Of a DNA stretch of 64,000 bases, positions 1 to 48,290 are shown one piece after another; position 1 is the stretch's first letter, and each line of letters starts with the position of its first letter. A program made the translations under genes and the position numbers. Origin of the DNA: an uncultured Clostridia bacterium (lineage in GTDB: Bacteria; Bacillota; Clostridia; Christensenellales; CAG-138); assembly GCA_946631895.1 (NCBI GenBank), contig CAMPAN010000002.1:14946-78945 (forward strand), given 5' to 3'. The notes below the pieces were generated by a model that saw only the letters and a program-made list of their open reading frames with translations, had not been told where the DNA came from and made no database searches.

Positions 1-1
1 A

Positions 2-985
2 TACTCAGATGATGAACTCTATGAGATTTTCCTGCGTAAAGCCAACGAATACGCAAAAACGGGAAAACGCATTCATCTTGCATTTTCGGACGAATTCGCG
101 CAATCATTGAAACACGGCTTCTCTGTTTTGCGGTTAAGGAAGGCAGACTCCTTCGGAAACGCCGGCGAAATCGAAGACTTATTAACCAAGTGCAGCTTGA
201 ACGCAGCCAAAAGGCTTGGCATGGATCTGGAGCGCGAATCGACAATCACGCTTGAGGCGTCTGATATTCCCGAGGAACTGCAAGGCAATACTAAGGATGA
301 CGAGGGGTTCCGTCCAACATACCGCCTGATCGACAGAGACGAGATCGAAAATGCAACCGATCCCTATTTGGGTATTGATATACATGGAGAAGATTTCGCC
401 GCTTTTTGCATCCAATCCATTCCTCGTATCGAAAACAAGTTTGGCCATGCTTCTGCATTTGTGATTTCACCGAAAGGGTATGCTGTTACATGTGCTCATG
501 CTGTAACATCAAAGGAAGACTTTAGACATGTTGCTGCAACAGATCTGATAGCCCGATTCACACACGCGGACGGAAGCAAAGAAAAATATCCCTATGAGAT
601 CATAAATATCAGGTCGGATGTGGATATGGCCTTGATTCGTATAAAAGCCGATCATGATCTTCCTTACCTGAAGCTTGCACCGGAGAGCCGACAGATCAAA
701 TTCGGTGAGGACTGTCATCTGTGCGGTTATCCGGACGGCAGAGAAGGCATCCTTCTACAGAAAGGATCAATCAATTCTCTTCCGGAAGAAGGCAAGGACG
801 GCGAGCTTGGTAGTATATATTTCTTCGACGGCGATGCTTTCCCCGGTGATTCGGGCGGTCCCATCATTGCCAAAAGCGACGGCTGTGTAATCGGCATTCT
901 ACGAGGTGCAAGAGGACCGAAGGATGGATCAATGCACAACTACATGAAACCGATCTGCTATTTCTGGAAAGAATTTCTGATATAG
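2..985 (+). CDS. 5'-truncated AAA+ (SpoVK/CbbX-type lid) :: trypsin-like serine protease fusion
   Basis: The frame of the listed 107..985 ORF (whose first codon is TTG) stays open to the window edge. From nt 2 it reads YSDDELYEIFLRKANEYAKTGK...FGNAGEIEDLL, like the C-terminal lid of SpoVK/CbbX AAA+ ATPases (compare YSTEELQRI...FGNGRFVRTL in the 34080..36089 protein). The C-terminal half has a chymotrypsin-fold triad: TCAHAV (His), DMALIRI (Asp) and GDSGGPI (Ser, nt 846-863). Confidence 0.7.
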   Translation, partial: YSDDELYEIFLRKANEYAKTGKRIHLAFSDEFAQSLKHGFSVLRLRKADSFGNAGEIEDLLTKCSLNAAKRLGMDLERESTITLEASDIPEELQGNTKDDEGFRPTYRLIDRDEIENATDPYLGIDIHGEDFAAFCIQSIPRIENKFGHASAFVISPKGYAVTCAHAVTSKEDFRHVAATDLIARFTHADGSKEKYPYEIINIRSDVDMALIRIKADHDLPYLKLAPESRQIKFGEDCHLCGYPDGREGILLQKGSINSLPEEGKDGELGSIYFFDGDAFPGDSGGPIIAKSDGCVIGILRGARGPKDGSMHNYMKPICYFWKEFLI

Positions 986-1047: not shown

Positions 1048-1710
1048 ATGTCAGGGAAAGATTATGAGCTCGAACGGCTGCGTAGCGAAATGGACTCTGC
1101 TCAAAGGGACATTGACGCTGCGAAAGCACGGCTTGACCCAATCGTCGCAAGGAGGGACAGTATCAAAAGCCAAATCGAATCCGTGAAGTATCGAATCAGC
1201 GATATTAAACATTCAATCGAAGAAGAGTACCGTATGATGAAGATTTGTTATCAAAGCCGTGATAAATATGATGCGGAAAACCATCGCTATAGAGCGCAAT
1301 CATTCAAAGATAGCCTGCAACGCGAGTATGATATTAAAAAAGGCTATTACGATGAATTGGATCGCTTGAAAAGCGATTTCGATTCAGCCTTAACCGGACT
1401 GCGTTCTGCAAAAGAACGGAAACAACGCGCTCATGAAGCTTTCAGCGCTCGGTTGCAAATGGTAAAAAGTCAGAACGAAAGTGAGCGTGCAAAATGGAAA
1501 GAAAAGTCTTGCAAGATTTGCGGCACAACGATTCGTTATCATGTTGATTGGAGCAGAGTCCCTGATCTATGTAAATCATGTCAGGAAAAGGAAAAAGCCA
1601 AATGGCATGAGACCACCTGCAAAAAATGCGGCAGAACGATTCGTTATCATCAGGACTGGTCGCACATCCCATCAATCTGTAAAGATTGCAAAACAACCAA
1701 CAACCGATGA
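1048..1710 (+). CDS. Coiled-coil protein with two C-terminal zinc-ribbon repeats
   Basis: AGGAG RBS upstream. About 150 aa are charged and heptad-rich. These are followed by two tandem copies of CK(I/K)CG(T/R)TIRYH.DWS..P..CK.C (CxxC...CxxC). Confidence 0.7.
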   Translation: MSGKDYELERLRSEMDSAQRDIDAAKARLDPIVARRDSIKSQIESVKYRISDIKHSIEEEYRMMKICYQSRDKYDAENHRYRAQSFKDSLQREYDIKKGYYDELDRLKSDFDSALTGLRSAKERKQRAHEAFSARLQMVKSQNESERAKWKEKSCKICGTTIRYHVDWSRVPDLCKSCQEKEKAKWHETTCKKCGRTIRYHQDWSHIPSICKDCKTTNNR

Positions 1711-1725
1711 ACAGGAGGCATTCTA

Positions 1726-3096
1726 ATGAGCAGTTATGTTTCTACAGTCACCATTAACGATAAGGAATGGATGGAAATCCAGCGTAAGGTCAGCGATACT
1801 GAGATTTATCTGACTCGCAAACGTGAAGAAACTCTTCGGCTGCGTGACGAGATTCAAAGGCGTGAACGAGAGCTCAGGGAAATGCAGGAGCAGTCTAAAA
1901 GGACGGTGGATAGTGAAATTACCATGCTGCAAGGTAGTTTTGACAAATCCGTTCACGATCTTCCTGCAACGATACGAGTGTCTTTGCGTCAACAAGCACA
2001 GGCTACCGACGGTGAGCTTGCCGCATTGAAGAATGATATACGGGCTACCGCGGCAAAAACATCTATCGCTTCTGCGCGTATATCGAAGATCTCTCAAGGA
2101 GTAGCAGATATCCTCGGTACACTTGTAAAGCAGGAAAAGGACAGTGAAAAAGGCGCAAGAGTGTATTTGGACAATATTACCTCCCTTCTTGAACAGATTG
2201 AACGGCTGCACCCGGATTCCTTTGAACCGCGCGCATATATGGAGGTTATACAGATCGTAAACAGCGCGAAATCAAACATCGACGCGGGAAGATACCAGTC
2301 ATCCCTCATTAACGCACAAGCCGGCTTGCTCAAAGCGTCAGCTCTCCTGACCTGCCTTATTCTTGCAAATGCGTCGTTCAATGAAAGCATTTCCGGTACC
2401 GCTGAACTTGCAGATTCTTTGAAAGCAAGATTTGATCGGTTCGATTCCCGCATGGACGGCAGCATCGCATTTGAAATTGATGGCGAAAAATATGAGTTTG
2501 ACTATGACATCGACCATTGGTCTGAAGGTCGCTTTGCTCAATTGAGAAAGGCGTTTCAAACTGCATACGAACAGCTTCAAAATGCAAAGGAAAAACGTAT
2601 TTCTGCGGACAAAATCGACGCTTTGAAGAAAACCTTTGAAGAACTTGGAAAACGACTCGACCGTTGCGATGCATCTGCACGCGCTGAAATGCTGGGCAGT
2701 CACAGAGCGCAGGAAACCGCAGCTCGTCTTTGTGACAGAATGCCTGAAGACTGGCAGCTCGACAAGTTCGGTTTTGAAGAAGAGGACGATCGGAATCCAT
2801 ATCGAATGCTCATCTCCACGCCTTCCGGCGCGAAGATACCTATTGTCATTTCGTCGGGTGCTTCTGCGGAAAAGCCAAGCATCTTTCTTGAAGCATACGC
2901 CGGAGACGAAGCTCGTTCAGAGATTCTGAAAAAGAACATTTTAGCGACGATTCCCATGGAAGGATTACGAGTAGAGCAGACGAAACATCTTCCCGATTGT
3001 CAAAGCAATCCTAACGGCAATGCGTTCCTTCAAAATACATTGCCGAAGGCCATGGCATTAAACAAGCAGCGTCGGCAAAAGAGCTTCGGAATGTGA
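1726..3096 (+). CDS. Long coiled-coil protein (paralog of 3116..4552)
   Basis: CAGGAGG RBS. The N-terminal region is E/R/K/Q/L-rich and helical. It shares its N-terminus (TVTINDKEWMEIQRKV vs AVVPITTYNSMKQQADA), a central R(L/K)(H/F)P(D/E)..E motif and a C-terminal R(N/D)P..M block with the next gene. Confidence 0.65.
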   Translation: MSSYVSTVTINDKEWMEIQRKVSDTEIYLTRKREETLRLRDEIQRRERELREMQEQSKRTVDSEITMLQGSFDKSVHDLPATIRVSLRQQAQATDGELAALKNDIRATAAKTSIASARISKISQGVADILGTLVKQEKDSEKGARVYLDNITSLLEQIERLHPDSFEPRAYMEVIQIVNSAKSNIDAGRYQSSLINAQAGLLKASALLTCLILANASFNESISGTAELADSLKARFDRFDSRMDGSIAFEIDGEKYEFDYDIDHWSEGRFAQLRKAFQTAYEQLQNAKEKRISADKIDALKKTFEELGKRLDRCDASARAEMLGSHRAQETAARLCDRMPEDWQLDKFGFEEEDDRNPYRMLISTPSGAKIPIVISSGASAEKPSIFLEAYAGDEARSEILKKNILATIPMEGLRVEQTKHLPDCQSNPNGNAFLQNTLPKAMALNKQRRQKSFGM

Positions 3097-3115
3097 CTTT
3101 ATCATAAGAGGAAAG

Positions 3116-4552
3116 GTGGCGAATTGCTTGGCTGTTGTTCCGATAACTACATACAACTCCATGAAGCAACAAGCGGATGCGTCTTTCGGCAGAATGCGAA
3201 GCGCACAGGAAGAATTGCTTGCGGAAAAGCGCAAGCTGCTTCGGCTTACACAAGAAAGCGGAGGCATGTCAAAAGAAGATCTGCAGGCCATGCAAACGAA
3301 GTTCGATGCTGCAAACGAACAGATTCAAGAAGAACTTGATTCTCTTCGCGAAGAGTTTGGTCGTCAACTCGGAAAGCAGGCGCAAGAGTACAAACGAGCT
3401 CTTACGGAGATCAGAAGCCTCGCTGAGGGAAACAAACACGATCTTGACAGCTTAAATAACAGGATTTCTTCTCTTGAAACGTCAGTCAAATCGCAGTTTG
3501 ACGTGCTTGCCAAGCGGATGCAGAACAATCGAAAGCAGTCCTTGTACTACTATCAGCAACTTAAGGAAACGGTAGATCAAATCGAAAAACTGTTCCCCGA
3601 GAAGTATGAAGTGTTGTTCCCCGATCAATTGCAGCCCGGCAGTTATGTGCTGCGGAGCGCATTGGGTTCGGTGCTGGAGGATATAGGTCTCGGGCGGTAT
3701 GAAGCCGCTATCGGTCTTTCGCAAACCTACCTACCGGAAGCTATCAATACGCTCGGCTTGCTTGAGTTTTTCCATGCCGCTTTTCTCAAGGCTGAAAAGG
3801 ATACAAAAAAAGCACTGTCGGATTTGTTAGCCAGAGTCGAAAAGCTTGAAAAGCCGAAGAAAACAGTCCTCCACATTGGAAAAGACGTCGAGTATGAAGA
3901 TAATCATGGCATCGGATACTGGGCTCGGGAACTGTTCGGAGAAATCAGGCAACGCCTGTCCGATGCGAACGCAAGATTCGATATCTGTGCTGACGCACAT
4001 GATGAGAAGGGTTTGACGCTGATACATCAGGATATAGATGTGCTTAACGGGCAAATATCCGCATGTGAACAAATCGAAGAAAGCGAACGCAGACTGCATT
4101 ATGAATGCTGTGAGCGAGCCGCTCAGGTGATAGACATTCTTGACGCAAACGATGATAACGCATGGTACGTTGAAGAATATCATATCAACGAGGAAGATCT
4201 TCGAGATCCTGTCTATATGACTTTGGCAAGACCGGAAGGATACCGGGTGACGGTTGCCTGTTACCAAGAACGGGGAATAAGCCAAACCGAACCGAGCACT
4301 GTCCGCTGTGAACTTGAAGTGTTCGATAACGGTACCGAAAAGGCGGATGCAGGTCGATGTTGCACTATCTATCGAAACATAGCAACCATTTTAGCAACAC
4401 ACGGTATTGTTCTTGATTCGGAAATTGGAAACGAGACGCAATCCGCAAACAGTAAGTCCTTTATTCGCAACGCCATCGACCACGAAGGTCAAGCACGTAC
4501 CATGTGGTTAAGTGCTGCAAGGAAGGCAATAGGATTATTTGAGGAGGTATAG
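3116..4552 (+). CDS. Long coiled-coil protein (paralog of 1726..3096)
   Basis: GTG start next to GAGGAAAG. N-terminal similarity to the upstream paralog supports this start. Coiled-coil-like composition. The stop lies 2 nt before the Hsp70-like gene. Confidence 0.6.
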   Translation: MANCLAVVPITTYNSMKQQADASFGRMRSAQEELLAEKRKLLRLTQESGGMSKEDLQAMQTKFDAANEQIQEELDSLREEFGRQLGKQAQEYKRALTEIRSLAEGNKHDLDSLNNRISSLETSVKSQFDVLAKRMQNNRKQSLYYYQQLKETVDQIEKLFPEKYEVLFPDQLQPGSYVLRSALGSVLEDIGLGRYEAAIGLSQTYLPEAINTLGLLEFFHAAFLKAEKDTKKALSDLLARVEKLEKPKKTVLHIGKDVEYEDNHGIGYWARELFGEIRQRLSDANARFDICADAHDEKGLTLIHQDIDVLNGQISACEQIEESERRLHYECCERAAQVIDILDANDDNAWYVEEYHINEEDLRDPVYMTLARPEGYRVTVACYQERGISQTEPSTVRCELEVFDNGTEKADAGRCCTIYRNIATILATHGIVLDSEIGNETQSANSKSFIRNAIDHEGQARTMWLSAARKAIGLFEEV

Positions 4553-4554
4553 GT

Positions 4555-6261
4555 ATGGGGGAAAGTATCGGTATTGACTTCGGAACGACATATTCTTCTA
4601 TCACGCATCTTACGAATATTAAAAAAGATTCAAAAGGCAATATAGTATCCAGTGACATTGAAGCGATTAAGATCGGCACTAAAGAAACCTTGGATACTTT
4701 AGTCGTGGACAGTAATGGCGAGAGGTATTTCGGTACTGGTGCAAGACTATGGGCCGATTCAGATCCGGATGCTAAAACGTATAAAGGGTTTAAGATGCTC
4801 TTAACTGAAAAAAGAAAAGAGCTGCTTGATGAATACGGGTATCATACTGGCGAACCCAGTATAATCACGCAAGAGTACTTGAAATATCTAATCAACAGCT
4901 ATAAAAGCAGCACAAGCGGTAAAATCGACATTGACTCTCTCGTAATCGGTGTACCCGAAGTATGGTACAAGACCGGAATTGAAAATAGAAACATGCTTCA
5001 GGAAATGCTTGAAGAGCAAGTTGGTGAAGGGAAAGTCAAACTTGAGAGTGAACCTGTTTTGGCATGCTCGTTCTTTGCATACAAACACAAAGAAAAAACG
5101 GGAAAAGACTTTATTGGCAAGATCCTTTTGATTGATTACGGTGGAGGGACCTTGGATATTGCTTTATGTGACATTCAAAAAGACAAACCGATACAGATCA
5201 AGTATAAAACGGGAGAAGGCGCAAACGAACAAAACAAGCTGGGGGACGCTGGACTGGCCTTTTTAGAAGCAGTTGTCTACCGAGCTATTGATCCTCAAGG
5301 CGTAATGGATCCGCAAGCCATACAGAAGAATGCGGAGTTTTATGCTTTTGAGCATAGAATTGAGAACTTTTTGATTGAAAATGAAGCTGATGTCACAAAG
5401 CGACTAAAGGCGGGAACCAGTATTAAAAGTGAACTCAAAAAACCTCTTTGTCCACCGATTGAGTATAACAAGAAAAGATATGTGGTAACATACGAGATGC
5501 TTGTCAAAGCATATAATGAAACCATCTTTCCGGTATTGGCTAAATGTCTAAACAGGGTTAGTACAGAATTGAAAAATAGGGGAATCGACTATGAAAATCC
5601 CAATTCAGAGAGCTTTCAGATCGCAATGGTAGGAGGTTTTTGCAATTTCTATTTAACCCAAGCGCAGATCATGAAGCAAACAGAAGGATTTAAAGCCGGA
5701 TCTGAAAAAGACAGACGATATGCAGAGTTCAATTCTTTACTATCATACAAAGAGAATCGAAAGCATGCAATCGGTTATGGAGCTGCACTAATGGCAAATG
5801 GTATCTATACATCAGCTTCCGGAGCACCATACTCTTTAGCGATTGTAAGAGAAACAATCGATAAAACGACCGGAAAATCTGTTCCTGATAAGAGAGGGCA
5901 GAAGTATATCGTTTTCAGGGAATATGACGATATCGAATATGACACTCCGCAAATGGTAAAAGGACAAGACTTTGTAAAAGGAAAAGCTTATACATACGAA
6001 CCCTATTTTAGCATTGACAGTATTCCATGGATACAGTATGTATGTGATGGGTTGGGTGGATTCGGGCATCCTGTAGGGTTAGATGATCTTCCCACAAATG
6101 CCGCGATAAAGCTTGGCTTTGCCTTAGATAAAAACTATAATCTTACTTTGTATCTGTTCGTAAAAGGCGAGAGTTCGCCTAGAAAAAGAATTCTATCAAA
6201 GAATATTCAACAGTTATGCGGCGGGAGCATCGAACTTAGAGAGGAGGACGCAACAATATGA
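4555..6261 (+). CDS. Non-canonical Hsp70/actin-fold ATPase
   Basis: GGAGG RBS. All Hsp70 nucleotide-binding-domain signatures are present: IGIDFGTTYS (phosphate-1), VIGVPEVW, EPVLACSFFAY, LLIDYGGGTLDIALC (phosphate-2, aa 191-205), IAMVGGFCNF (adenosine motif) and AIGYGAALMA. I do not recognise the last ~150 aa as a DnaK substrate-binding domain. Confidence 0.85.
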   Translation: MGESIGIDFGTTYSSITHLTNIKKDSKGNIVSSDIEAIKIGTKETLDTLVVDSNGERYFGTGARLWADSDPDAKTYKGFKMLLTEKRKELLDEYGYHTGEPSIITQEYLKYLINSYKSSTSGKIDIDSLVIGVPEVWYKTGIENRNMLQEMLEEQVGEGKVKLESEPVLACSFFAYKHKEKTGKDFIGKILLIDYGGGTLDIALCDIQKDKPIQIKYKTGEGANEQNKLGDAGLAFLEAVVYRAIDPQGVMDPQAIQKNAEFYAFEHRIENFLIENEADVTKRLKAGTSIKSELKKPLCPPIEYNKKRYVVTYEMLVKAYNETIFPVLAKCLNRVSTELKNRGIDYENPNSESFQIAMVGGFCNFYLTQAQIMKQTEGFKAGSEKDRRYAEFNSLLSYKENRKHAIGYGAALMANGIYTSASGAPYSLAIVRETIDKTTGKSVPDKRGQKYIVFREYDDIEYDTPQMVKGQDFVKGKAYTYEPYFSIDSIPWIQYVCDGLGGFGHPVGLDDLPTNAAIKLGFALDKNYNLTLYLFVKGESSPRKRILSKNIQQLCGGSIELREEDATI

Positions 6262-7253
6262 TGAATCAGATGAATACTGGAAACATAAAATTGGAAAGCA
6301 TCAAAAAAGCCATTGCCTTAATTGAGAATACCCCGAAAAGCAGCATTAAAGCAGAAGATGTTTTTGAAGCGACATCCATATTGATTGACGATATTCTTGA
6401 ATATACGGAATCCAATGATGTCAATCAATATGAAATCGGTGATATAGACAGCTATGCACTAAATCTTGCAAAGGTTGCAAATGCTATTAGTTTATCCTTT
6501 GAAACCCATAAAGACGAATTGCCTGATGCAGACCGGTACTATGAAGAGCTTGTTAAGGAAAAGATTGAAGCAATCAGAAGTGCTAACGACATGCTCAAGA
6601 TTCTTCGACCAAAGATTGAAAACCTTACAAACAAGAAAGCCGAATTAAAGGGGCTTCAAGATGAGGTTAGTCAATTCAGAATGGAGATTTCTACACTTGA
6701 GAAAGAAGTAGCTAATCTTGATACAGTTGATGTTGAATCGCTTAGAAAAAGAGTTGCTGAGCTAACAGTAGAAAAAGAGAAGAAAGAAAAGGAAATCAGT
6801 ATCCTATATGATTCCATTGATGAGATCGAGACCGTTATTAACAACACAAAAAAAGGGATCATAACCACTGTTTCTGAAAAAAAGGCACTATTTCAAGACA
6901 AAGAAAGCAGTATCTCTAATGAAGTTCTGGGCTTTTTATCGTGGAAAGACACCTTTATACATGAACACAAAGACCGAATGAAGCAAATGGCGGAAGCACA
7001 AAATCAGTTGACAGCCATCCACAATGCATGGTCATCTGTAAGCCAAAGACCAGAGCTTCCTGAAATGCTGAAAAATACCGAAAAACGGAACGCTTACCAT
7101 CTTCCGGCTATAGAGGTATCAAACTTTGAGGATATCAAAAATTGGTTTGAGGAAACAAATACGGGGCTTCTTTCTTGTATTAGCGTCTATACCGAAATGT
7201 ACACAACGGTAATGACTGTATTGTTGGAGTCATCGAGTAATAAAAAGGAGTAA
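6258..7253 (+). CDS. Coiled-coil protein
   Basis: ATGA overlap with the Hsp70-like gene suggests translational coupling. The central ~130 aa are heptad-rich (KIENLTNKKAELKGLQDEVSQFRMEISTLEKEVANL...). Confidence 0.65.
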   Translation: MMNQMNTGNIKLESIKKAIALIENTPKSSIKAEDVFEATSILIDDILEYTESNDVNQYEIGDIDSYALNLAKVANAISLSFETHKDELPDADRYYEELVKEKIEAIRSANDMLKILRPKIENLTNKKAELKGLQDEVSQFRMEISTLEKEVANLDTVDVESLRKRVAELTVEKEKKEKEISILYDSIDEIETVINNTKKGIITTVSEKKALFQDKESSISNEVLGFLSWKDTFIHEHKDRMKQMAEAQNQLTAIHNAWSSVSQRPELPEMLKNTEKRNAYHLPAIEVSNFEDIKNWFEETNTGLLSCISVYTEMYTTVMTVLLESSSNKKE

Positions 7254-7258
7254 CACTT

Positions 7259-7792: not shown

Positions 7793-7847
7793 CTAAGACC
7801 TGGGGATTTGAGTCATAACACTTAATCCCCTATGGAGACAAAGCGAT

Positions 7848-8600
7848 ATGAAACAGTGTCCAAACTGTCAGGGACTAGAACTGTATGACGATGAGGAAAT
7901 AAGATGCCCTCATTGCGACTCTGTGCTCGTTCCATATGTCCGATCAAGACGAACTTCTTCTTCAGGCAATCCTACGCAAGAGGAGACTGTTCGTCCGACT
8001 ACTCCTCACAGTTCAGCAAGGAGAGCGCAGCAGCCGGAGTTTGAACAGCGAGTTGGCAGAAAACTCCAATACAGAGGTATTGTTGATAGCATCACCCCCT
8101 CTTCTCGCTTCATGCCCCGCTTTCTGAAATGGGCAAATGCGGTTTTTCGCGGTCAACCTTTTCAGTTGGGTAATCCTGTTCACGAGACGACTATACGAAT
8201 TGAAGAAATCAGTCAATCCAGATTGCCCGATAGAATGAGGAGCCTTGTCTATTATGGGGAGTTGAATGAGTTAGATGTCGGAGACGATGTAACAATATCG
8301 GCTTACAGAAAGAATAGCCGTCTGATTATAAAGCGAATCCGAATCAATGACATTGAGTCCGATGTGAAGCCGCACGGTCAGATCTCTGCGGCAGCAATGC
8401 GAATTGTATCTGTGATCGCGTTGTCCTGCATAGTATTCATAATCGCCGCAATCACATCTTTCTTTACATCGGGAGGTATTTGGAAGCTATTTGATTCCCT
8501 TGTGACAGGAACTCTCGGCATAGCATCCAGACTTTTGATTATCCTCGGGCCGATAGGTGCACTCGTTTTAATATACTGGCTGTTTTTTCGCAAAAGATAA
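7848..8600 (+). CDS. N-terminal zinc-ribbon protein with C-terminal transmembrane helices
   Basis: CPNCQG..x12..CPHCDS ribbon followed by a Ser/Pro/Arg-rich linker. There are two hydrophobic stretches near the C-terminus (IVSVIALSCIVFIIAAITSFF and LLIILGPIGALVLIYWLFF). Confidence 0.6.
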   Translation: MKQCPNCQGLELYDDEEIRCPHCDSVLVPYVRSRRTSSSGNPTQEETVRPTTPHSSARRAQQPEFEQRVGRKLQYRGIVDSITPSSRFMPRFLKWANAVFRGQPFQLGNPVHETTIRIEEISQSRLPDRMRSLVYYGELNELDVGDDVTISAYRKNSRLIIKRIRINDIESDVKPHGQISAAAMRIVSVIALSCIVFIIAAITSFFTSGGIWKLFDSLVTGTLGIASRLLIILGPIGALVLIYWLFFRKR

Positions 8601-8626
8601 TCATGGAAGATTGAAGGAGAACCATT

Positions 8627-9796
8627 ATGCGGTGTCTAAAATGTGGAGGACAATTAGATCATCATAAATGCTCAGTCTGCGGATTTGACACGGTCAAAGA
8701 CACGGTACATTTTTTATCGGCACAGCAGGCGAAAACCATGTCGCATTTGATTGCTTCGCTTTGGGACGATGAAATACACAAATCAGATGTTAAGCATGAA
8801 ATCATCGACGCCATCGACGAAGAGAGGCGGCAACTGGAGGAAAGGAAAAAAGCTCTATTACAAAGGAAAAAAGCTCTATTACAAAGAAGAAAACAAATTG
8901 AAATGGAGATAGAAGCTCTCCAAAACTCAATGCAGCAAGATCAATCATCTGCTAATTATTCATCCCATTTCATTCGAAAAGAGTTCGATGTAGAGTTGGC
9001 AATTATCGATTGGTTCAAAGATTCGACGGAGTATCCTGATGCAACTGAAATAGATCGTTTTTATCAATCATTATCATTTGCAGACGGTGCAGTCCCGTGG
9101 CGCTCCCGGTCCAGAATCAAGGAACTGGTATACCGCTATATCGAGATGAACATGGAAGTGAATACTCCGAAGGATGTTTCAAAGATTCTAAGATCTGATA
9201 ACAAGGAGCCTGTCACTTTTTTCATGCCGATCGACAGTTTCTTTTCTGATGTGAAACAGAGAACAATCGCTTGTGGAAAAGTGTTGCTCGGCGGCATCGC
9301 TGCCGGTAAACCGGTTGACATCATTCTTAAAGACGGAGATCGCTTAAAATCATTTATTACGCAGATTAATCACGGTCTTTATTCATATAATGGTCGTTCC
9401 TTTGCAGAAAAAGGAGATGTTGTAGGATTAACTCTACAAAATATCAAACAACTCAAATCGACAGAAGCACAGGCTATCGTGAATCCCAATGCCAATGCCT
9501 TGCACATGGAGTTTTCGGGTTCGTTGAATCTCTTGAAAAAAGAAGAGGGCGGTCGAAATCTTCCTGTATTTACAGGATATAAACCTTTTCTCCGAGGTCT
9601 TAACAAGGACACTCGAGGCCTTATTACCTTTGCAAAAAGGGATTCAAAACTTGATATGTTACGACCGGGCAATAAAGCTATTGTACATGTCGAATTGGAT
9701 GAACCGATCGCGATTGTTCCAGGAATGGTGTTTTCCGTTCATGAGGACGACTCGGTTACAATAGCAAAACTAACGGTAACATCGACAGAGGATTGA
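8627..9796 (+). CDS. Zinc ribbon - coiled coil - EF-Tu domain II/III homolog (no G domain)
   Basis: GAAGGAG RBS. The N-terminus is CLKCGG..x7..CSVCGFD. A coiled segment contains RKKALLQ twice. The C-terminal ~195 aa (nt ~9209-9796) align by eye with EF-Tu domains II-III. Examples: LLKKEEGGRNLPVFTGYKPFL...TRGLITF vs [32 protein letters not shown], and MLRPGNKAIVHVELDEPIAIVPGMVFSV vs [28 protein letters not shown]. No GHVDHGKT or other GTPase motifs are present. Confidence 0.8.
   Translation: MRCLKCGGQLDHHKCSVCGFDTVKDTVHFLSAQQAKTMSHLIASLWDDEIHKSDVKHEIIDAIDEERRQLEERKKALLQRKKALLQRRKQIEMEIEALQNSMQQDQSSANYSSHFIRKEFDVELAIIDWFKDSTEYPDATEIDRFYQSLSFADGAVPWRSRSRIKELVYRYIEMNMEVNTPKDVSKILRSDNKEPVTFFMPIDSFFSDVKQRTIACGKVLLGGIAAGKPVDIILKDGDRLKSFITQINHGLYSYNGRSFAEKGDVVGLTLQNIKQLKSTEAQAIVNPNANALHMEFSGSLNLLKKEEGGRNLPVFTGYKPFLRGLNKDTRGLITFAKRDSKLDMLRPGNKAIVHVELDEPIAIVPGMVFSVHEDDSVTIAKLTVTSTED
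8843..8884 (+). repeat. Perfect 21-bp in-frame tandem duplication (AGGAAAAAAGCTCTATTACAA x2)
   Basis: Read directly: 8843-8863 is identical to 8864-8884. It encodes RKKALLQ-RKKALLQ inside the coiled segment. Confidence 0.9.
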
Positions 9797-9828
9797 CCGA
9801 TGACAGTCCGATAAAATAGGAGGTTTCA

Positions 9829-12340: not shown

Positions 12341-13201
12341 ATGTTGGATACAAGCCTATTCAGAGAAACCGCTTCATCGGAGACTCGCGAACAAAACGGT
12401 ATCGCTTGTGTTGAAATAAACCGACCGCAGAGAGAAGTTGACGACAAAAAGGAGATTTCTTCTGTGGAGGTCGCTCAAAAGGCATATGATGAAACAATAA
12501 AAGAAATCAATATCGAATGCGAAGGTATTATTCCAAAGGAACAAAAAACACGAATCAATCTCGAAAGAGAAGTCCATAAGCCGATCATCATGACTTCCGA
12601 AGAATACAGCGAACGTTTCCCGGAAGCTGATCCGAATGTATTGGGGCATTATGAAGCAAACGGGCAAGTGTATATGAAAGACGGCTCTCCCGAAACGCTT
12701 TCGCACGTTGCAACGCATGAAGCCATGCATTTGACATCATTTAAGGAAAGTAATCAGAATACTTACCGATCCGGGCTGCGCGAAGCAACATATAACGAGA
12801 ACGGCATGCGAGAGGAGCATAATCGTGCCATAAACGAAGGAGCAACCGAGCTATATGCCCTTCGGGAAATGCAGCGTCGAAACGAAGGATCTTCCATCGA
12901 AGCAATCTCTGCATATCCGGAAGCGCAAAGGGCAGCATCGGAGCTACGGGACATGGTTGGAGAAGAAAGAATGCGTGAAGCATACTTCGGCGGCAACCTC
13001 GAACAATTGAAAGCGGAGGTAATCCGCTTGAATTATGGAGATGAAACAGCGTGGGATCGTTTCTCTAAAAATGTTGACATTCTTGAGTACGAGGGAGACG
13101 AACAAAAGATACGGAATGCTCAGATTGAGTTAACCTTGCAAAATGCTATAATGTATTCATTTAAAGAATCTGAAGCATGGACAAGAAGTGACAACTTATA
13201 A
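12341..13201 (+). CDS. Putative HExxH zinc metallopeptidase
   Basis: The ATG lies 1 nt after the HerA-like stop, with a GGAGGA RBS. The motif is HVATHEAMHLTSF (HExxH). The listed 12164 start would overlap the upstream gene by 176 nt. Confidence 0.55.
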   Translation: MLDTSLFRETASSETREQNGIACVEINRPQREVDDKKEISSVEVAQKAYDETIKEINIECEGIIPKEQKTRINLEREVHKPIIMTSEEYSERFPEADPNVLGHYEANGQVYMKDGSPETLSHVATHEAMHLTSFKESNQNTYRSGLREATYNENGMREEHNRAINEGATELYALREMQRRNEGSSIEAISAYPEAQRAASELRDMVGEERMREAYFGGNLEQLKAEVIRLNYGDETAWDRFSKNVDILEYEGDEQKIRNAQIELTLQNAIMYSFKESEAWTRSDNL

Positions 13202-13221: not shown

Positions 13222-13716
13222 GTGATAATTGAATCGTTTATAAAAGAGATCGTATTCAATGCAATAGAGAACTGTAATTATGATCCAACCACCGTCTCGA
13301 ACGGTATCTGTTCTTATGCACAACGTCATGGTTTTCATGAACTGAAAACAAAATTCACGGACAGTGTTATCAAAAGAGTAATTGTCAACAGTTTAACTCC
13401 CATCATGAGTATGAAGCCGGACGCCATTACGCTTTATTTTTCAAATTATTCGCTGATTGAGAGGCTTTCTTTACTGAACAACCAATCTTTGATTATTGCC
13501 AACGCTAAACGCGCAGGAAAGTATGTCAATGACGATGAGATTTTAAAAATCGAAGAAGCATTTGATGACTGTATGAAAACGGTTTGCCAAGAACAAGGGC
13601 TCAGAGAATTGCTTGACATTCAGATATCAGAGATTATCCTCAACATCGACTATGCAAAAGGAGTATCATCTCATATGGGACAGAGATTGAATTCATTGGA
13701 AGGAGATTCTCATTGA
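13222..13716 (+). CDS. Hypothetical protein
   Basis: GTG start with a GGGGGA RBS. Its 4-nt overlap with the next gene suggests coupling. No motif recognised. Confidence 0.45.
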   Translation: MIIESFIKEIVFNAIENCNYDPTTVSNGICSYAQRHGFHELKTKFTDSVIKRVIVNSLTPIMSMKPDAITLYFSNYSLIERLSLLNNQSLIIANAKRAGKYVNDDEILKIEEAFDDCMKTVCQEQGLRELLDIQISEIILNIDYAKGVSSHMGQRLNSLEGDSH

Positions 13717-14330
13717 ATACAATCAGACTGCACGACATTTATATGCATACAACAGCGCTGGGACCGGGTACAAGAATCGCTGTTTGGCTGCAAGGATGCA
13801 AGCGCTGCTGTAAAGGCTGTATGTCACCGAAGTCAAGACCTTTGGATGGCGGACGTATGGTCGATTTGGATGCGCTTATTGAAGAGATTTGTTCCACACA
13901 TGATGTGGAGGGGGTAACAATCAGCGGCGGCGAACCTTTTTTACAAGTGCAGGCTCTCTATCGTCTGCTGTCTGCCATAAGGAACCGCACGGAACTCGGA
14001 ATAATTATTTATACCGGAAATACCCTGTCTGAACTGTACGAAATGCATAATCCCATGATAGATGAGATTATTACCCATCTGTCTGACCTGATTATAGATG
14101 GCGAATACATAGATGACTTGAATGACGGAACCGCACTGAAAGGATCCAGCAATCAAAACGCAATCTTCATTACCGACAGATATTTGCCCTATAAATGGCT
14201 GTATGAAGAGAAAAGAAGAGATATAGAAATCAAAATTGAGAATGGAAGTTCGCTGCTTATTGGAGTTCCGGACAAAAGCACACTTGAAATGTGGAGGCGT
14301 ATCTCGGACCAAATGAAAGGCGAGGAGTAG
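13713..14330 (+). CDS. NrdG-like radical-SAM activating enzyme (4Fe-4S single-cluster type)
   Basis: TTG start with a GGAAGGAG RBS. GPGTRIAVWLQGCKRCCKGCMSP gives CX3CX2C in the context typical of glycyl-radical-enzyme activases. GGEPFLQ follows. No NrdD or other glycyl-radical enzyme is visible in the window. Confidence 0.7.
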   Translation: MNTIRLHDIYMHTTALGPGTRIAVWLQGCKRCCKGCMSPKSRPLDGGRMVDLDALIEEICSTHDVEGVTISGGEPFLQVQALYRLLSAIRNRTELGIIIYTGNTLSELYEMHNPMIDEIITHLSDLIIDGEYIDDLNDGTALKGSSNQNAIFITDRYLPYKWLYEEKRRDIEIKIENGSSLLIGVPDKSTLEMWRRISDQMKGEE

Positions 14331-14632: not shown

Positions 14633-15373
14633 ATGATCTTCGGAAATGAAGAAACATACATTCTTATAGGAAATGCTATGTGTCATGGAGATATGGACGC
14701 CTATAATCGCATTGGTGAAATTATAGTTAATGACACTATGCTTCTTGTTAATAGCTGGTTTCGAGATCTTCAATCAGCCGATAAAGAAGACATCGTGCAG
14801 GATGTAGCCGAAAAAATGCTTCGCGGTCTTCTCAAGTTTTATGAGGACTCGAATCATAATACTGAACAGCAAAGAAACGCATACTTGAAGACTGCTGTTT
14901 ATAACGCTTGTATGGATTTTTTCAGAAAAGCCAAACGATCTGTGCTGACAAACGCCATAAGTATTGATAAAGTACACGGTCATGTGTTTGAGGAAGACTT
15001 CTCAAAACGCTGTGCAGATAAAGACGCTTTTTTATCTGCATTGAAGGGAGTATTTCAAATTCATACTACACCCGATAAGATGATAGCGTTTGTATACAAT
15101 CGCTTATTGGGAACACTGACCGGAAAGAACGGTTCCCCAAAGAGCATCATAGCCCAATTCGACGGTATGCCGATACAGAACGTTTACGAACAAATGGTTT
15201 GCGACTTAAGTACAGTATCGGGAAATCGTATACCGGATGGAGTATTATCATCACTAAGGAACTCCGTTTATGGTGATTATTATAATCACCCATTTCATAT
15301 GACACCGCACCAGATAGCAGACAGCAGCAACTGGATTGTTGAGAAAACAAAGGAGAAGAAGAATGAGTACTAA
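14633..15373 (+). CDS. Sigma-70 family (ECF-like) sigma factor
   Basis: Region-2-like segment: KEDIVQDVAEKMLRGLLKFYE...NAYLKTAVYNACMDFFRKAKRS. The region-4 assignment is weak. Confidence 0.55.
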   Translation: MIFGNEETYILIGNAMCHGDMDAYNRIGEIIVNDTMLLVNSWFRDLQSADKEDIVQDVAEKMLRGLLKFYEDSNHNTEQQRNAYLKTAVYNACMDFFRKAKRSVLTNAISIDKVHGHVFEEDFSKRCADKDAFLSALKGVFQIHTTPDKMIAFVYNRLLGTLTGKNGSPKSIIAQFDGMPIQNVYEQMVCDLSTVSGNRIPDGVLSSLRNSVYGDYYNHPFHMTPHQIADSSNWIVEKTKEKKNEY

Positions 15374-16037
15374 GGTATCTGAAAACGAGCATATCCCTTT
15401 TGATGAGCTTTCTGCATTTGTGTTTGCGAAAAACACATCGAAAGACTTCCTGTCTGTGGCTGCACGGATAAACAAACATTTAATGGCATGTCCTTCATGC
15501 AAGAAGAATTACTATGCCTTAATGAATGTGAAAGATGAGATTGAAAAGGCTGCCAGATATGAAACCTTCGATGAAAGAATCGAGACACGTGTATTTGCTT
15601 TCTTATATTCAAAAAAGCACAGTTCGTCACTTCAAGCAATCGTAAAGGAAAGTCTTAGATTCAAGAAATGGGTATCTTTCAATATCAGAAGCATGAAAGA
15701 AATAGTGTCGGTGCAACAGCCGCGGCTTGCCCACCCTGTATTGGCATCTGTAATGAAATCCTCGACATCCGGCAGTCAAGCCGATGAAGTCAAGACGGAA
15801 ATAAAAACCAGTTTGTATGATCGGAATCGAAATAGGGTCAGTATTGGGCTGGATGGTACATTGTCGCTTTACTTTGATGCCTCAAGCCATCCGGCAGGAA
15901 AACGAGTCATTATCCTTCCCGATGATGTAACCAAAAGCCCTCAAATGGTTGAACTGACACGGTATGATGATTCTGTTGCGTATGTCCGTGTTGAAGGGAT
16001 TGCCCCTGGGGAATACACAGTTGTTATTGAAGAGTAA
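15363..16037 (+). CDS. Putative anti-sigma factor (zf-HC2 type)
   Basis: ATG with an AAGGAG RBS, overlapping the sigma-gene stop by 11 nt. HLMACPSC fits the Hx3Cx2C zinc anti-sigma motif. Confidence 0.5.
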   Translation: MSTKVSENEHIPFDELSAFVFAKNTSKDFLSVAARINKHLMACPSCKKNYYALMNVKDEIEKAARYETFDERIETRVFAFLYSKKHSSSLQAIVKESLRFKKWVSFNIRSMKEIVSVQQPRLAHPVLASVMKSSTSGSQADEVKTEIKTSLYDRNRNRVSIGLDGTLSLYFDASSHPAGKRVIILPDDVTKSPQMVELTRYDDSVAYVRVEGIAPGEYTVVIEE

Positions 16038-16150: not shown

Positions 16151-18967
16151 ATGAATTGTCCGAAATGCGGAGCCAAGCTGATTGACTATATCTGTGGTAA
16201 GTGCGGCTTTGATCTTAAGCGTGATACGATCAGCTGCTGGGGAGCAGGCAGCAAAATAAGCATAGATGCGTTGACAAGGTATATTCAAAAAAAGGATGCC
16301 GAAGCAAGCAAAGCCTCAAAAGACTCGCTTGATTACCCTCTGCTCATAAATCAAATGATAGTGGATCCTAAACCCGTGCGGCAATCTTTGGATAATTCGA
16401 TTGATACAAGCAAAAAGACAAAGCAGGACGAAGATGATTTATATGTCAGAATAGGAGAAAGAATCTCTAAAGAACTATCAAAAGAGGAATTAGAAGAATT
16501 CGACTCAATTAAAAATACAACAGAAGCAGGGAAATGGTTAGCAATACATGCGCCAAATTATATATCCATCGTAGAAGAAGAAAGAGCCAAGTTTCTTCAA
16601 GAAAAGGATGTCAGGCAAACTGCTGCACAACGACATGCTGCTGAAATGGCAGATCGATACGCAGCCAATGCTGTAATGGAACAAATCCATAGTATAGGCA
16701 GAGTAGATTCGTCTAAGGAGTGCGGTCAGCGCATTCAAGACGCACGTGATGCCTTTAAAAGGCTTACACCTTACCGACAGGAGATGGTGACAAATAGAAA
16801 TCTGTTGGTAGATGCAGAAGCAAGATACGCTTTCTTGTTACAAACCGAACAGAAGAAGAAAGAACGTCGTGCAAAAATAGAATACGTTCAAAAAGACAAA
16901 AATCGCAATACAAATAACGCCAAGCGCACAAGAAGGATCATTTACTTTGCATTTGCTGCATTGTTGCTATGTGTCGGCGTGTTTATATTATGCAAATCGG
17001 TGTTTTTTTCAGATATGGAAAAGCCACTGTCTTCGTCTTTCTTCGCATCCGCGAAACAAGGTGACGTGTTCACGCTTGGAAAATATGAGCAAGACAACAA
17101 TCATGACAACGGAGCAGAAGATATTGAATGGGTTGTCGTGGACGTGGACGCTGATAAAGGAGTTGTTCTTGCTATGAGCAAGTATGTTCTCGATTGCAAA
17201 CCTTATGCGGAAAACGAGTATATCAATACGGATTGGGAACATTGTTCGTTACGCGAATGGTTAAATGGAGAGTTCTATGAGTCGTCATTTTCAGATGATG
17301 ATAAACAGTGGATTCGAACAGTTTGTCATCAAAATAGAGATGGCATGGGATATGAAACGCCGGGAGGTTATAATACGGTGGATCATGTGTTTCTCCTCGA
17401 TCGTGCAGATCTCCGAACATTATGTGATGATGTTTCATACCAGCTTGGAGGGTTAAATGAAAGCTACAGCGATGTGAGACGGAAAGAGATTGACTCCTCG
17501 TTGCCATTACTTGCTGACTATTTAGGAGAATTATCATACATAAAAAACATAATAGATGTTAGACAGGAAGAGCTCCTTTCATCATCAAATATCTTAACTG
17601 ACGTAACTGATGACTGTTTTGTTGTAGACTTCTTTTCAACGTCATCTGTTTCTGAAAGGCTCAAAGCTACTTTTACACCATACGCAAAAGAGGCATATAT
17701 CCGACAGCAAATGATTTCAAAGGGCTCTGCGGAGACAGAAGAGAAGATTCGAGAGGATTACGCCGAACTTGAAAAAGAATATGGAGAATTAGCTGCGGAC
17801 TGGTGGCTGAGCAGTCCTGGGAAATGGTTGGATCAGACCATGATCGTTTCTTGGCCCGGTATAGCGACTAGCATGCCTTCTCGTGACACCTCAAGGGGTG
17901 TGCGCCCAGTTATAGCCATAGCTTCTATTACATCGGACAGAAATGAAGAGAATGCTCAGAACGAAGAACAAAACGAAAATGTATCTGATTTGCTTTCATT
18001 CCCCGAAGTAAGCGAATCTTCTAAAGATGATTATTCTTTTTCACACGATAACTACGTTGTACAGTGGGTAGAAGATGATCAGAAAGCCCTTTTCATTCTG
18101 AAAGATGGAAGTGTCAGAGTTGTTAGTTATGATACTGACTATTTATCATCCGTATCTGATTGGAAAAACATTAAGAAAGTCGCCATCGGTTCTGGCGTGG
18201 TCGTTGGTATAACAAACGATGGAAAGATTCAGTGTTATGCAGAACATGAGCTTTCTTATGACCTTTCTACATTGATGAGTTTGACACATATATGCGATGT
18301 TTGTATATGTGATGCAATCAATCCCCAAAATCCTGATTATAGCGGACTGATTATTTGTTTTTCAGATGAAGGAACAGTATATAGAGCATATGCGGGAGGA
18401 TATAATGCCTATTGGAATGACAGCTGTAAAGCAATATGTGCATCTGGAAACCAATTCTTCATTCTCCACGATGACGGAACTGTCAGCGGGAGAGATTGGG
18501 AAAGCAATCCGCTTGTAGAAGAATGGAACGATATCGTCCAAATTGCATGCGGCGATACTTTCGTCGCGGGTCTAAAAAGCGACGGAACGGTTGTTGTTGA
18601 CGGTAGTTGTGTATTTCCTGCTCTTACTGGGGTTACGGTGTTGAAAGGGGATGGGACATTTGGCAGAATAGACGAATTATTTGAGGTTTCAAACTGGAAA
18701 GATATCATCTCCATCTCTGCCGGGTCGCATCATTTGGTCGGTCTTAAGAGTGATGGAACCGTTGTTGCTGTCGGATTGAACTACTATGGTCAATGTGACA
18801 CTTTTGAAGAACGTCTTTGGACAGATATCGTTAGGATTGAGGCCAGCGGAAATATGACGGTCGGTTTTGCTTCTGATGGTAGTGTCGTGATAGCAGGCAA
18901 GAACATTGTTGATAACGTTATTGATCTTAAGGGGAAATGGAATTTCTATAGGTACTATTCAAGGTAA
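16151..18967 (+). CDS. Zinc ribbon - TM - DUF6273-like - RCC1-repeat surface protein
   Basis: The N-terminus is CPKCGAKLIDYICGKCGFD. A TM helix follows (IIYFAFAALLLCVGVFILC). Next is GKYEQDN...IEWVVVD...WEHCSLREWLNGEFY, which as I recall is typical of the Firmicute DUF6273 family. The C-terminus has repeated (V/L)(A/V)GLKSDGTVV and YYGQCD motifs typical of RCC1-like beta-propeller blades. Confidence 0.7.
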   Translation: MNCPKCGAKLIDYICGKCGFDLKRDTISCWGAGSKISIDALTRYIQKKDAEASKASKDSLDYPLLINQMIVDPKPVRQSLDNSIDTSKKTKQDEDDLYVRIGERISKELSKEELEEFDSIKNTTEAGKWLAIHAPNYISIVEEERAKFLQEKDVRQTAAQRHAAEMADRYAANAVMEQIHSIGRVDSSKECGQRIQDARDAFKRLTPYRQEMVTNRNLLVDAEARYAFLLQTEQKKKERRAKIEYVQKDKNRNTNNAKRTRRIIYFAFAALLLCVGVFILCKSVFFSDMEKPLSSSFFASAKQGDVFTLGKYEQDNNHDNGAEDIEWVVVDVDADKGVVLAMSKYVLDCKPYAENEYINTDWEHCSLREWLNGEFYESSFSDDDKQWIRTVCHQNRDGMGYETPGGYNTVDHVFLLDRADLRTLCDDVSYQLGGLNESYSDVRRKEIDSSLPLLADYLGELSYIKNIIDVRQEELLSSSNILTDVTDDCFVVDFFSTSSVSERLKATFTPYAKEAYIRQQMISKGSAETEEKIREDYAELEKEYGELAADWWLSSPGKWLDQTMIVSWPGIATSMPSRDTSRGVRPVIAIASITSDRNEENAQNEEQNENVSDLLSFPEVSESSKDDYSFSHDNYVVQWVEDDQKALFILKDGSVRVVSYDTDYLSSVSDWKNIKKVAIGSGVVVGITNDGKIQCYAEHELSYDLSTLMSLTHICDVCICDAINPQNPDYSGLIICFSDEGTVYRAYAGGYNAYWNDSCKAICASGNQFFILHDDGTVSGRDWESNPLVEEWNDIVQIACGDTFVAGLKSDGTVVVDGSCVFPALTGVTVLKGDGTFGRIDELFEVSNWKDIISISAGSHHLVGLKSDGTVVAVGLNYYGQCDTFEERLWTDIVRIEASGNMTVGFASDGSVVIAGKNIVDNVIDLKGKWNFYRYYSR

Positions 18968-19203: not shown

Positions 19204-19320
19204 ACTGCACACACAGCATAACTTACCTGCTCATATATAGCATTAATAGCATGTCTCGTTTTTGTGCTTTATAGCAGATATGAGCAGGACTATTGTTTCA
19301 ATGTAAAAGAGGTGATCGGT

Positions 19321-20031: not shown

Positions 20032-20084
20032 TGGTATCATAACCTTATTCGCGTTCGTCAAGAAAACATCAAAGGAATGGTGTA

Positions 20085-34063: not shown

Positions 34064-34079
34064 AGAAAGGAGACGAAAG

Positions 34080-48251: not shown

Positions 48252-48290
48252 GAGCGGCTCCTTTCTGTTCATTCGGATGCTTTTTTCGGA

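Follow-up and report, generated by a model that had tools for sequence, protein, structure and literature searches.

Elongation factor Tu (EF-Tu) is a hub of phage-host conflict, as illustrated by Qbeta replicase, which involves EF-Tu, by the Lit/Gol pair, type IV Thoeris, and Avs7. Lit and type IV Thoeris are abortive-infection systems which target EF-Tu. The Gol peptide of the T4 capsid binds EF-Tu domains II-III and licenses Lit, which cleaves EF-Tu at Gly59-Ile60, a site of the G domain. Avs7 recruits host EF-Tu via the same domains, and capsid sensing is thereby enhanced (Nature 2026, PMC13581612). The DNA analyzed here, hereafter called the window, is a stretch of 64,000 nucleotides from an uncultured Clostridia bacterium (GenBank assembly GCA_946631895.1, contig CAMPAN010000002.1, positions 14,946 to 78,945). 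At 8627..9796 (+) it carries a gene, referred to as the EF-Tu-like gene, which encodes a protein of 389 residues homologous at its C-terminal end to EF-Tu domains II and III, and devoid of the G domain.

EF-Tu domains in described conflict systems

Among the closest relatives in concept are the 'Elongation Factor Tu domains' reported as fused to the caspase component of System 4 by Kaur, Burroughs, Iyer and Aravind (eLife 2020, PMC7159879). In that report EF-Tu domains are variable modules of a conflict system. The principle that NTPase/protease conflict systems employ inactive host fragments as exchangeable parts is thus known. The window operon and the systems of Kaur et al. both feature an inactive fragment of a host protein as one of many alternative modules, chaperone-type NTPases, proteases, repeats forming superstructures, and a patchy distribution. 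In contrast to these systems, the window operon has no EACC1 or caspase partner, and its core is neither MoxR-vWA nor GTPase. System 4 pairs an EACC1 TM (transmembrane) gene with a protein having an N-terminal caspase or cyclase domain, and no caspase or cyclase was detected by Pfam in the EF-Tu-like protein or its neighbours. The constant part is here a zinc (Zn) ribbon head, found in a Clostridial operon of Hsp70, HerA and AAA-trypsin genes.

In Avs7 and Lit/Gol, EF-Tu II-III is the phage-sensing surface. These systems use the full-length EF-Tu of the cell in trans, whereas a diverged II-III copy is encoded within the window operon. The Lit cleavage site is absent from the window protein, and no match to the Lit family (peptidase U49) was obtained for the HExxH protein encoded nearby. 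The preliminary description of the locus had suggested that the protein may be a substrate mimic for the neighbouring proteases; a mimic of Lit type is inapplicable, because the G domain is missing, and Gly59-Ile60 with it.

In plant NLR (nucleotide-binding leucine-rich repeat) receptors, copies of host targets are built in as bait, and are known as integrated decoy domains. A bacterial relative of the window protein, P0292, in which a TIR domain is fused to II-III, has formally the same architecture, and a bait role is a proposal. The window protein, unlike plant receptors, includes neither an NTPase nor an effector domain. Descriptions of the Zn-ribbon/EF-Tu II-III family, of its L12-CTD (L7/L12 C-terminal domain), MORN and TIR relatives, or of the Hsp70/HerA/AAA-trypsin operon which carries it, were not found in the searchable literature.

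A homologue of EF-Tu domains II and III without G domain

The preliminary description had assigned the C-terminal part of the protein to EF-Tu domains II and III, and phmmer, hhalign and Foldseek all lead to EF-Tu. The similarity is specific, and does not reflect a generic translation-factor barrel. All 59 phmmer matches in the PDB are EF-Tu (best E=8.7e-20, residues 196-375 on EF-Tu 210-383). The only NCBIfam translation-factor models matched are those of EF-Tu, at 75-79 bits, and the 389-residue protein does not reach the cut-offs of the curated EF-Tu family (449-522 bits). Profile-profile comparison by hhalign with 20 EF-Tu sequences gave a probability of 99.8% (E=2e-29) over residues 197-377. 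Foldseek lists nothing but EF-Tu among its best 50 PDB matches (E ~1e-18), and in a word-indexed search of 5.8 billion proteins the matches were confined to near-identical copies and, at 26-34% identity, ordinary EF-Tu. Domain III is recognized by Pfam (GTP_EFTU_D3, E=7e-12). At E<=1, Pfam reports neither the G domain (GTP_EFTU) in the 389-residue protein nor domain II in the window copy, the latter being found in relatives only. Structural motifs of EF-Tu are retained (F229, GD.VG, EGG...P.F..Y.P, MPG), and the three peptide blocks cited in the preliminary description are all found in the translation: GKVLLGGIAAGKPVDII (residues 217-233), KEEGGRNLPVFTGYKPF (residues 305-321) and MLRPGNKAIVHVELDEPIAIVPGMVFSV (residues 344-371). 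In comparison with bacterial EF-Tu (TIGR00485), the window protein is alike in sequence and fold over ~180 residues, but lacks the G domain, has replaced tRNA-contact residues, and features a Zn ribbon, a coiled coil and a helical module in its N-terminal half.

The preliminary description had stated that the gene is no tuf pseudogene, which is confirmed for tuf and holds for selB too. Similarity to II-III only was detected by tblastn with three EF-Tu queries (E<=10) in all frames of the window. A frameshifted G-domain remnant was found neither upstream nor in any other frame, and a decayed tuf or selB gene is ruled out. With permissive settings, the hhalign alignment continues colinearly into EF-Tu residues 116-200; of the residues before domain II, only the last ~25 sometimes enter EF-Tu alignments. 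The region spanning residues 112-192 scored 12.0 against the G-domain profile; 200 column shuffles scored 11.5+-2.2, and 75 of them reached 12.0. Since the region scores like shuffled columns, its three helices are not supported as a relic of the G domain.

The open reading frame (ORF) is intact, as claimed earlier, is preceded by its own ribosome binding site, and is intact also in the independent assemblies L001 and L091. Gaps of 26 and 32 nucleotides (nt) separate it from the upstream and the downstream gene, respectively. On the + strand of the interval 7200-10200, no promoter-like or terminator-like site flanks the gene, which is therefore read as part of an operon; the sole match, a weak terminator-like site at 7420, falls within the gene of a 177-residue Zn-ribbon protein. 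Signals and protein modules are listed below, with boundaries taken largely from an AlphaFold2 (AF2) model.

8613..8620 (+), ribosome binding site GAAGGAGA, 6 nt 5' of the ATG, read from the sequence
8627..8692 (+), Zn-ribbon head, residues 1-22, C3/C6/C15/C18, motif M+C.KCG...C..CGFD (AF2 model)
8702..8761 (+), helix after the ribbon, residues 26-45, part of the shared head (AF2 model)
8786..8947 (+), long single helix, residues 54-107, probably a coiled-coil stalk (AF2 model)
8841..8893 (+), 21-nt tandem repeat, 2.5 copies, encoding RKKALLQ heptads (Tandem Repeats Finder)
8990..9163 (+), three-helix module, residues 122-179, kept in P0214 (AF2 pLDDT, predicted local distance difference test, 81-90; one loop block ~59)
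9212..9496 (+), EF-Tu domain II homologue, residues 196-290, with degenerate pocket residues (phmmer, hhalign, AF2, alignment)
9500..9787 (+), EF-Tu domain III homologue, residues 292-387 (Pfam GTP_EFTU_D3, hhalign, AF2, Foldseek)

The AF2 model has a mean pLDDT of 81.6, and features two beta domains (residues 196-290 and 292-387) and a disordered linker at residues 109-118. The tandem repeat falls inside helix 54-107, which is missing in the orthologue P0214. A database 'short form' of 297 residues (P0002) is an artefact, a spurious gene call due to a scaffold N-gap at the 21-nt repeat in L002. The order of modules given in the preliminary description (Zn ribbon, coiled coil, unassigned region, domains II and III, no G domain) agrees with sequence and model. 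As judged from sequence and model, the protein is soluble, non-enzymatic and modular, and is made of a head, a coiled-coil stalk, a three-helix module, and a barrel pair derived from EF-Tu II-III.

Residues contacting tRNA

Contact positions were mapped by alignment to the numbering of the Thermus ternary complex (T. aquaticus). The residues holding the aminoacyl group, A76, the 5' phosphate and the T stem are taken to be those of the 1TTT structure. Changes were found at 11 positions in the window copy (E226D, D227S, I231D, T239C, E271N, N285V, R300E, H331N, Q341F, T350R, G391D), and the GRG motif is changed to KQR. The conserved aminoacyl-tRNA contacts E226, D227, T239, E271, N285, R300, H331, Q341 and T350 of T. 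aquaticus are all among the residues replaced, and the pocket for the aminoacyl-tRNA 3' end, the conservation of which had been proposed as a check, is lost. Throughout the family R300 is lost, Q341 is replaced by an aromatic residue, and T350 by Arg. The domain-II pocket is mostly kept across the family (E226 in 10/11 members, F229 in 11/11, E271 in 11/11).

Binding of aminoacyl-tRNA by EF-Tu needs the G domain in the GTP form, which is part of the binding cleft in the 1TTT ternary complex. Binding of aminoacyl-tRNA by the window protein is unlikely on the evidence of these residues. Since contact residues are lost and the G domain is absent, the suggestion that the protein is a dominant-negative binder of aminoacyl-tRNA is disfavoured.

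A rare family of II-III proteins

Proteins with domains II and III and no G domain had been proposed as a search target. A rare family of this kind was found by an exhaustive search of 1.84 billion representatives: of 1110 matches, a distinct set without G domain scores above canonical EF-Tu. The family is small, and comes from gut and rumen Clostridia. When the family profile was used in a word-index search, nearly all matches were EF-Tu. Members differ in the modules which accompany II-III, as follows.

P0214, P0215, P0221: Zn-ribbon head and II-III
P0216: Zn ribbon, helical domain, II-III
P0217, P0219: Zn ribbon, L7/L12 C-terminal domain, II-III, with a SEC-C motif in addition in P0219
P0224: Zn ribbon, MORN repeats, coiled coil, II-III
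P0218, P0220, P0227: headless short forms
P0292: N-terminal TIR domain, then two tandem II-III units, no G domain
P0223, P0225, P0228, P0252: membrane-anchored, predicted extracellular
P0230, P0238: predicted secreted, N-terminal signal, duplicated units of L12-CTD and II-III

Only P0230 features a PASTA domain, and its signal is of the lipoprotein type. II-III proteins which are membrane-anchored and probably extracellular (P0223, P0225, P0228, P0252, P0283) include some with additional copies of domain III; in P0252 the order is Zn ribbon, transmembrane (TM) segment, II-III-III. They recall reports of EF-Tu moonlighting on the cell surface. The C-terminal domain of L7/L12 recruits translational GTPases, and its fusion to II-III is recurrent (P0217, P0219, P0230, P0238).

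Family members share derived residues which are absent from the 20 EF-Tu sequences: N286 (12/12), G237 (12/12), R330 (10/12), as well as A281, D358 and F335. The window protein carries this signature, along with the loss of R300 and Q341, and has no G domain. The CxxC...CxxCGFD head is found in 8/12 aligned members, the window protein included, and is missing in P0218, P0220, P0222 and P0227. The derived residues shared by the Zn-ribbon clade argue for its single origin.

Some relatives are linked to defence genes. In addition to the TIR fusion P0292, a tight set, with the EF-Tu-like P0227 gene first, then a 141-residue gene, a stand-alone CARF gene and a sigma-like gene, was found in three samples (L103 3514-7127, L104, L105). 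The CARF protein belongs to the TM1812 family (PADLOC, E=1.3e-51), and a Csx20-like gene and an HTH/M78 pair (HTH, helix-turn-helix) lie near the set. No Hsp70 was seen on the P0227 contigs, which are only 6-12 kb long. The set resembles a type III CRISPR accessory or cOA (cyclic oligoadenylate) signalling cluster; no cas genes are visible on the contig.

A phage origin of gene or operon is unsupported. No family member was found in GenBank phages, where the only matches are to tuf at ~30% identity. Structural search of BFVD gave only GTPases of giant viruses, relatives of the operon were not found in IMG/VR, and the Hsp70-like gene was not found in phages.

The Hsp70 operon and its island

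The operon occupies the first part of the window. GC content is 40-47% over the first 22 kb and 55-62% over 22000-64000, with a sharp step near 22 kb. The operon, being in a stretch at 40-47% in a genome at 55-62%, is thus taken to lie on an acquired island, the left end of which falls beyond the window. No tRNA gene was detected by ARAGORN in the window. The genes surrounding the EF-Tu-like gene are the following.

1..985 (+), 3' end of a gene for a multi-AAA+ protein with C-terminal trypsin-like protease (AHAV, DMALI and GDSGGP present)
1048..1710 (+), coiled-coil protein with C-terminal double Zn ribbon
1726..4552 (+), two paralogues of 456 and 478 residues, which cross-match each other, function unassigned
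4555..6261 (+), Hsp70-like ATPase (AF2 pLDDT 85, pTM, predicted template modelling score, 0.86; Foldseek DnaK/BiP/Hsc70, E=4e-20)
6258..7253 (+), coiled-coil protein, 331 residues
7259..7792 (+), core small Zn-ribbon protein, 177 residues, of a type found with the Hsp70-like gene at most related loci
7848..8600 (+), Zn-ribbon protein with C-terminal TM helices, 250 residues
9829..12339 (+), HerA/FtsK-superfamily ATPase, 836 residues (Walker A GSTGAGKTN)
12341..13201 (+), putative HExxH (HEAMH) metalloprotease, 286 residues, no Pfam or PADLOC family match
13222..14330 (+), 164-residue protein, then NrdG-like radical-SAM activase
14633..16037 (+), sigma-70/ECF-like protein, then 233-residue protein
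16151..18967 (+), protein of 938 residues with Zn-ribbon head, TM segment, DUF6273 and RCC1 repeats, the head being of the type of the EF-Tu-like protein

Among the neighbours named in the preliminary description, the Hsp70-like gene, the trypsin domain and the protein with the HEAMH motif were all found. The multi-AAA+/trypsin gene runs off the left end of the window; its product measures 1801 residues in L002. The Hsp70-like protein features a nucleotide-binding domain of actin fold, with conserved DFGTTYS and DYGGGTLD motifs, and a beta-sandwich substrate-binding domain, and has no helical lid. Its model aligns with DnaK, BiP and Hsc70 across ~600 columns, and by the presence of both domains the modelled protein is classed as a true Hsp70. 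The 478-residue paralogue has a weak PADLOC match to the dynamin-like LeoBC. NCBIfam links the sigma-like protein (14633-15373) weakly (E=6e-5) to the RpoE-like sigma factor which accompanies type III-E CRISPR.

Zn-ribbon cargo of Hsp70-like loci

More than 465 homologues of the Hsp70-like gene were found, and 80 loci from different Clostridial species were fetched; almost all scanned loci were obtained via this gene. Proteins with an N-terminal Zn ribbon occur in 75 scanned loci, and 139 of 149 are encoded on the Hsp70 strand. A typical locus has one Zn-ribbon protein of ~165 residues and a variable number of longer ones. The cargo of 64 long Zn-ribbon proteins consists of RCC1 (14), Sel1 (7), DUF285 (6), DUF6273 (6), LRR (5) and MORN (3) sequences, and about half of the cargo proteins have TM segments. 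The head of the EF-Tu-like protein (M+C.KCG...C..CGFD and the following helix) matches those of DUF6273/RCC1 proteins, including the one encoded at 16151, and residues 1-43 match L003 by tblastn (E ~8e-7).

The EF-Tu-like gene is itself not a core component of Hsp70 loci. By hmmsearch of 13,617 ORFs from 82 loci and the window, it was found in the lineage of the window only, and in the other 80 species loci no EF-Tu-like ORF lies <=10 kb from the Hsp70-like gene. The P0215, P0220 and P0221 genes adjoin genes of DUF6273 type, and DUF5663/DUF6273 proteins accompany EF-Tu-like genes in four contexts (window 16151-18967; L085, L088, L102). DUF6273 is mentioned in published work on diversity-generating retroelements and the phage receptor-binding proteins which they target.

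Loci with the extended operon were gathered via genome, metagenome and per-protein look-ups. In these, the gene resides in the same operon of Hsp70-like, HerA-like, AAA-trypsin, HExxH and radical-SAM genes in three lineages, at two slots. The lineage of the window and that of P0214 (L083=L095=L097) have the gene in a slot flanked by the Zn-ribbon-TM and HerA-like genes. In L089 it follows the radical-SAM gene, and its product, P0224, has a different N-terminal architecture. The gene is missing in seven syntenic loci (L003, L094, L093, L096, L005, L098, L099), in most of which the flanking genes are ~50 nt apart. In L092 (8711-9943), a 3' remnant of a P0214-like gene (E=1e-14) is spread over three frames and contains an internal stop. 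Behind it come two small Zn-ribbon genes that are new, the one Sel1-like, the other DUF5663-like. Remnant and new genes mark the slot flanked by the Zn-ribbon-TM and HerA-like genes as a hot spot of cargo exchange. When window and L095 are compared, identity is 42% for the EF-Tu-like protein (residues 107-389 only), 65% for the HerA-like and 67% for the radical-SAM protein, and the EF-Tu-like gene is among the faster-evolving components of the operon. Given three carrier lineages, two slots, seven loci without the gene and one remnant, the EF-Tu-like gene is a facultative, quickly turned-over cargo gene of a multi-gene island.

Possible function of the EF-Tu-like protein

The explanation preferred here, to which a little less than an even chance is given, is that the protein is a tethered recognition module, bait or sensor, of the Hsp70/HerA/protease machine rather than a translation factor, and that its ligand is most likely a foreign protein which docks on EF-Tu. 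The Zn-ribbon head would dock the protein on the core machine, and the sister proteins featuring the same head would be docked likewise. The II-III barrels would be the target-recognition end, equivalent to the RCC1, Sel1, LRR and MORN repeats of the sister Zn-ribbon proteins. Because the Gol peptide and Avs7 both dock on II-III, a foreign protein is inferred as ligand, and the likeliest would be one of an invader which naturally docks on EF-Tu II-III, such as a phage capsid protein. The II-III module would then act as tethered bait, the occupancy of which may be read by the ATPases and proteases of the operon. A wider claim, that II-III has been captured repeatedly as built-in bait with which bacterial immune proteins detect phage proteins adapted to EF-Tu docking, such as capsid proteins of Gol type, is more doubtful; II-III would then be a prokaryotic integrated decoy, and the Hsp70 island a new multi-component defence system with exchangeable Zn-ribbon sensors.

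The suggestion of the preliminary description that II-III may be a decoy for phage proteins gains indirect support. The variable cargo slot, the relatives linked to TIR and CARF, and the docking of Gol and Avs7 are consistent with bait; faithful mimicry of EF-Tu is doubtful, since identity to EF-Tu is as low as ~32%. Several further observations speak against the recognition module as proposed. At an identity of about a third, the protein may not mimic the surface of the host factor. The domain-II pocket, kept in P0214, is lost in the window copy which occupies the same slot; the surface is in this respect not shared, and the pocket is evidently not required by the operon. About half of the Zn-ribbon cargo spans the membrane and its repeats are probably extracellular, so that a role at the cell surface fits equally well. 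Relatives predicted to be extracellular (P0223, P0225, P0228, P0230, P0252) suggest a generic binding fold rather than EF-Tu mimicry. Docking of the head on the core is inferred from co-occurrence only. In PADLOC-DB v2 no specific system was found for the window protein or the operon core, the only matches being LmuB, a coiled-coil match, for the EF-Tu-like protein, and generic HerA and trypsin entries for its neighbours, and identity with a known anti-phage system was rejected.

The same lack of matches between core genes and known defence systems would be expected of a role outside immunity, which is considered unlikely. The protein would be an accessory adaptor or client of a specialised Hsp70/HerA machine, engaged, for example, in envelope or surface-protein handling, in regulated proteolysis that feeds a sigma/anti-sigma switch, or in differentiation of a spore-former, and the EF-Tu barrels merely a convenient binding fold. 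The sigma-like gene of the operon and the gene which follows it fit this explanation, as do the TM segments of about half of the cargo proteins, the presence of repeats typical of surface proteins, and the absence of relatives from the viral collections searched. The Hsp70-like gene and its small Zn-ribbon partner are moreover widespread in Clostridia (465+ homologues, 80 species-level loci). Conflict genes are, however, typically patchy, with variable slots and pseudogenised lineages, as is the case here with one such lineage. The island has a foreign base composition, relatives of the protein are fused to TIR or lie near CARF and Csx20-like genes, and two proteases and two ATPases share the operon.

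An effector directed against translation is rather improbable. Released or activated, for example, by the proteases or ATPases of the operon, II-III would act as a dominant negative, and bind ribosomes, aminoacyl-tRNA, EF-Ts or the L7/L12 stalk, slowing translation as in abortive infection. Conservation of the aminoacyl/A76 pocket of domain II in relatives (E226, F229 and E271, counts above) is in favour of such an effector, and so are the four L7/L12 C-terminal domain fusions and the fact that EF-Tu is already the target of Lit and type IV Thoeris. The window copy, however, is left without nearly all residues of the pocket and of the backbone contacts; R300, which contacts the 5' phosphate, and Q341 and T350, which contact the T stem, are lost in the whole family; the GTP-form G domain needed for aminoacyl-tRNA binding is absent, and certain relatives are predicted to be extracellular.

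A stoichiometric decoy, which would shield the real EF-Tu pool from toxins or phage enzymes (CdiA-CT, Tse6, Doc-type kinases, ADP-ribosyltransferases) without signalling, is very improbable. Solved complexes of EF-Tu with CdiA-CT/CdiI and with Tse6 (5i4q, 7vmc, 4zv4) are among the matches. The Doc target, which we take to be Thr382 in E. coli numbering, aligns with Val377 of the window protein when this numbering is mapped on the alignment. Identity to EF-Tu, at only ~32%, is a further difficulty, and the tether made of Zn ribbon and coiled coil suggests assembly into a machine. EF-Tu is extremely abundant, being quoted as 6-10% of the E. coli proteome, so that a stoichiometric decoy encoded by an accessory operon is implausible.

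A functionless relic, that is a captured tuf fragment drifting to loss, is hardly credible: domain II of the window copy is the most degenerate of the family (undetected by Pfam, GRG mutated to KQR), a copy is pseudogenised in the related operon of L092, and the gene is dispensable in seven syntenic loci, but the 389-codon ORF is intact, with a good ribosome binding site, in at least 3 assemblies, an orthologue at 42-44% identity is full-length and has kept the three helices, both barrels are modelled by AF2 at a pLDDT of roughly 90, and family-specific residues are kept across 12 members.

If the protein is tethered bait, the II-III surface may be a general point of virus recognition, hard-wired into TIR fusions, the CARF set and Hsp70-operon cargo, and the binding partners of the II-III family give a direct handle on this idea. 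The loci point to a large uncharacterised system of gut and rumen Clostridia, made of a lidless Hsp70, small Zn-ribbon partners and exchangeable Zn-ribbon cargo. If the role is instead outside immunity, the family would be a clean case of a translation-factor fold exapted as generic binding module, in versions predicted to be extracellular as well.

Other features of the window and of a related plasmid

The Lactococcus cremoris plasmid pB26B (L100, 34541-50343) encodes a protein distantly homologous to the HerA-like ATPase, at 25% identity. The plasmid operon in which it lies encodes a WYL protein, two dynamin-family and two hypothetical proteins, a DUF87 ATPase and an HNH endonuclease.

Downstream of the window operon, at 19264-21140, two paralogous membrane proteins of 255 and 351 residues have in common a conserved C-terminal domain ending in NERVIAKTPY. 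Membrane proteins of this type are found downstream of the operon also in L092, L095 and L097. A 699-residue ORF at 39613-41712 has a PolC-type exonuclease-like N-terminus and a DnaB-helicase-like C-terminus. The regions 34050-36089 and 45471-52157 belong to the part of the window with host composition, which encodes an AAA protein of SpoVK/CbbX/EccA type with a 400-residue N-terminal extension and, on the minus strand, two very large internalin-like LRR proteins.

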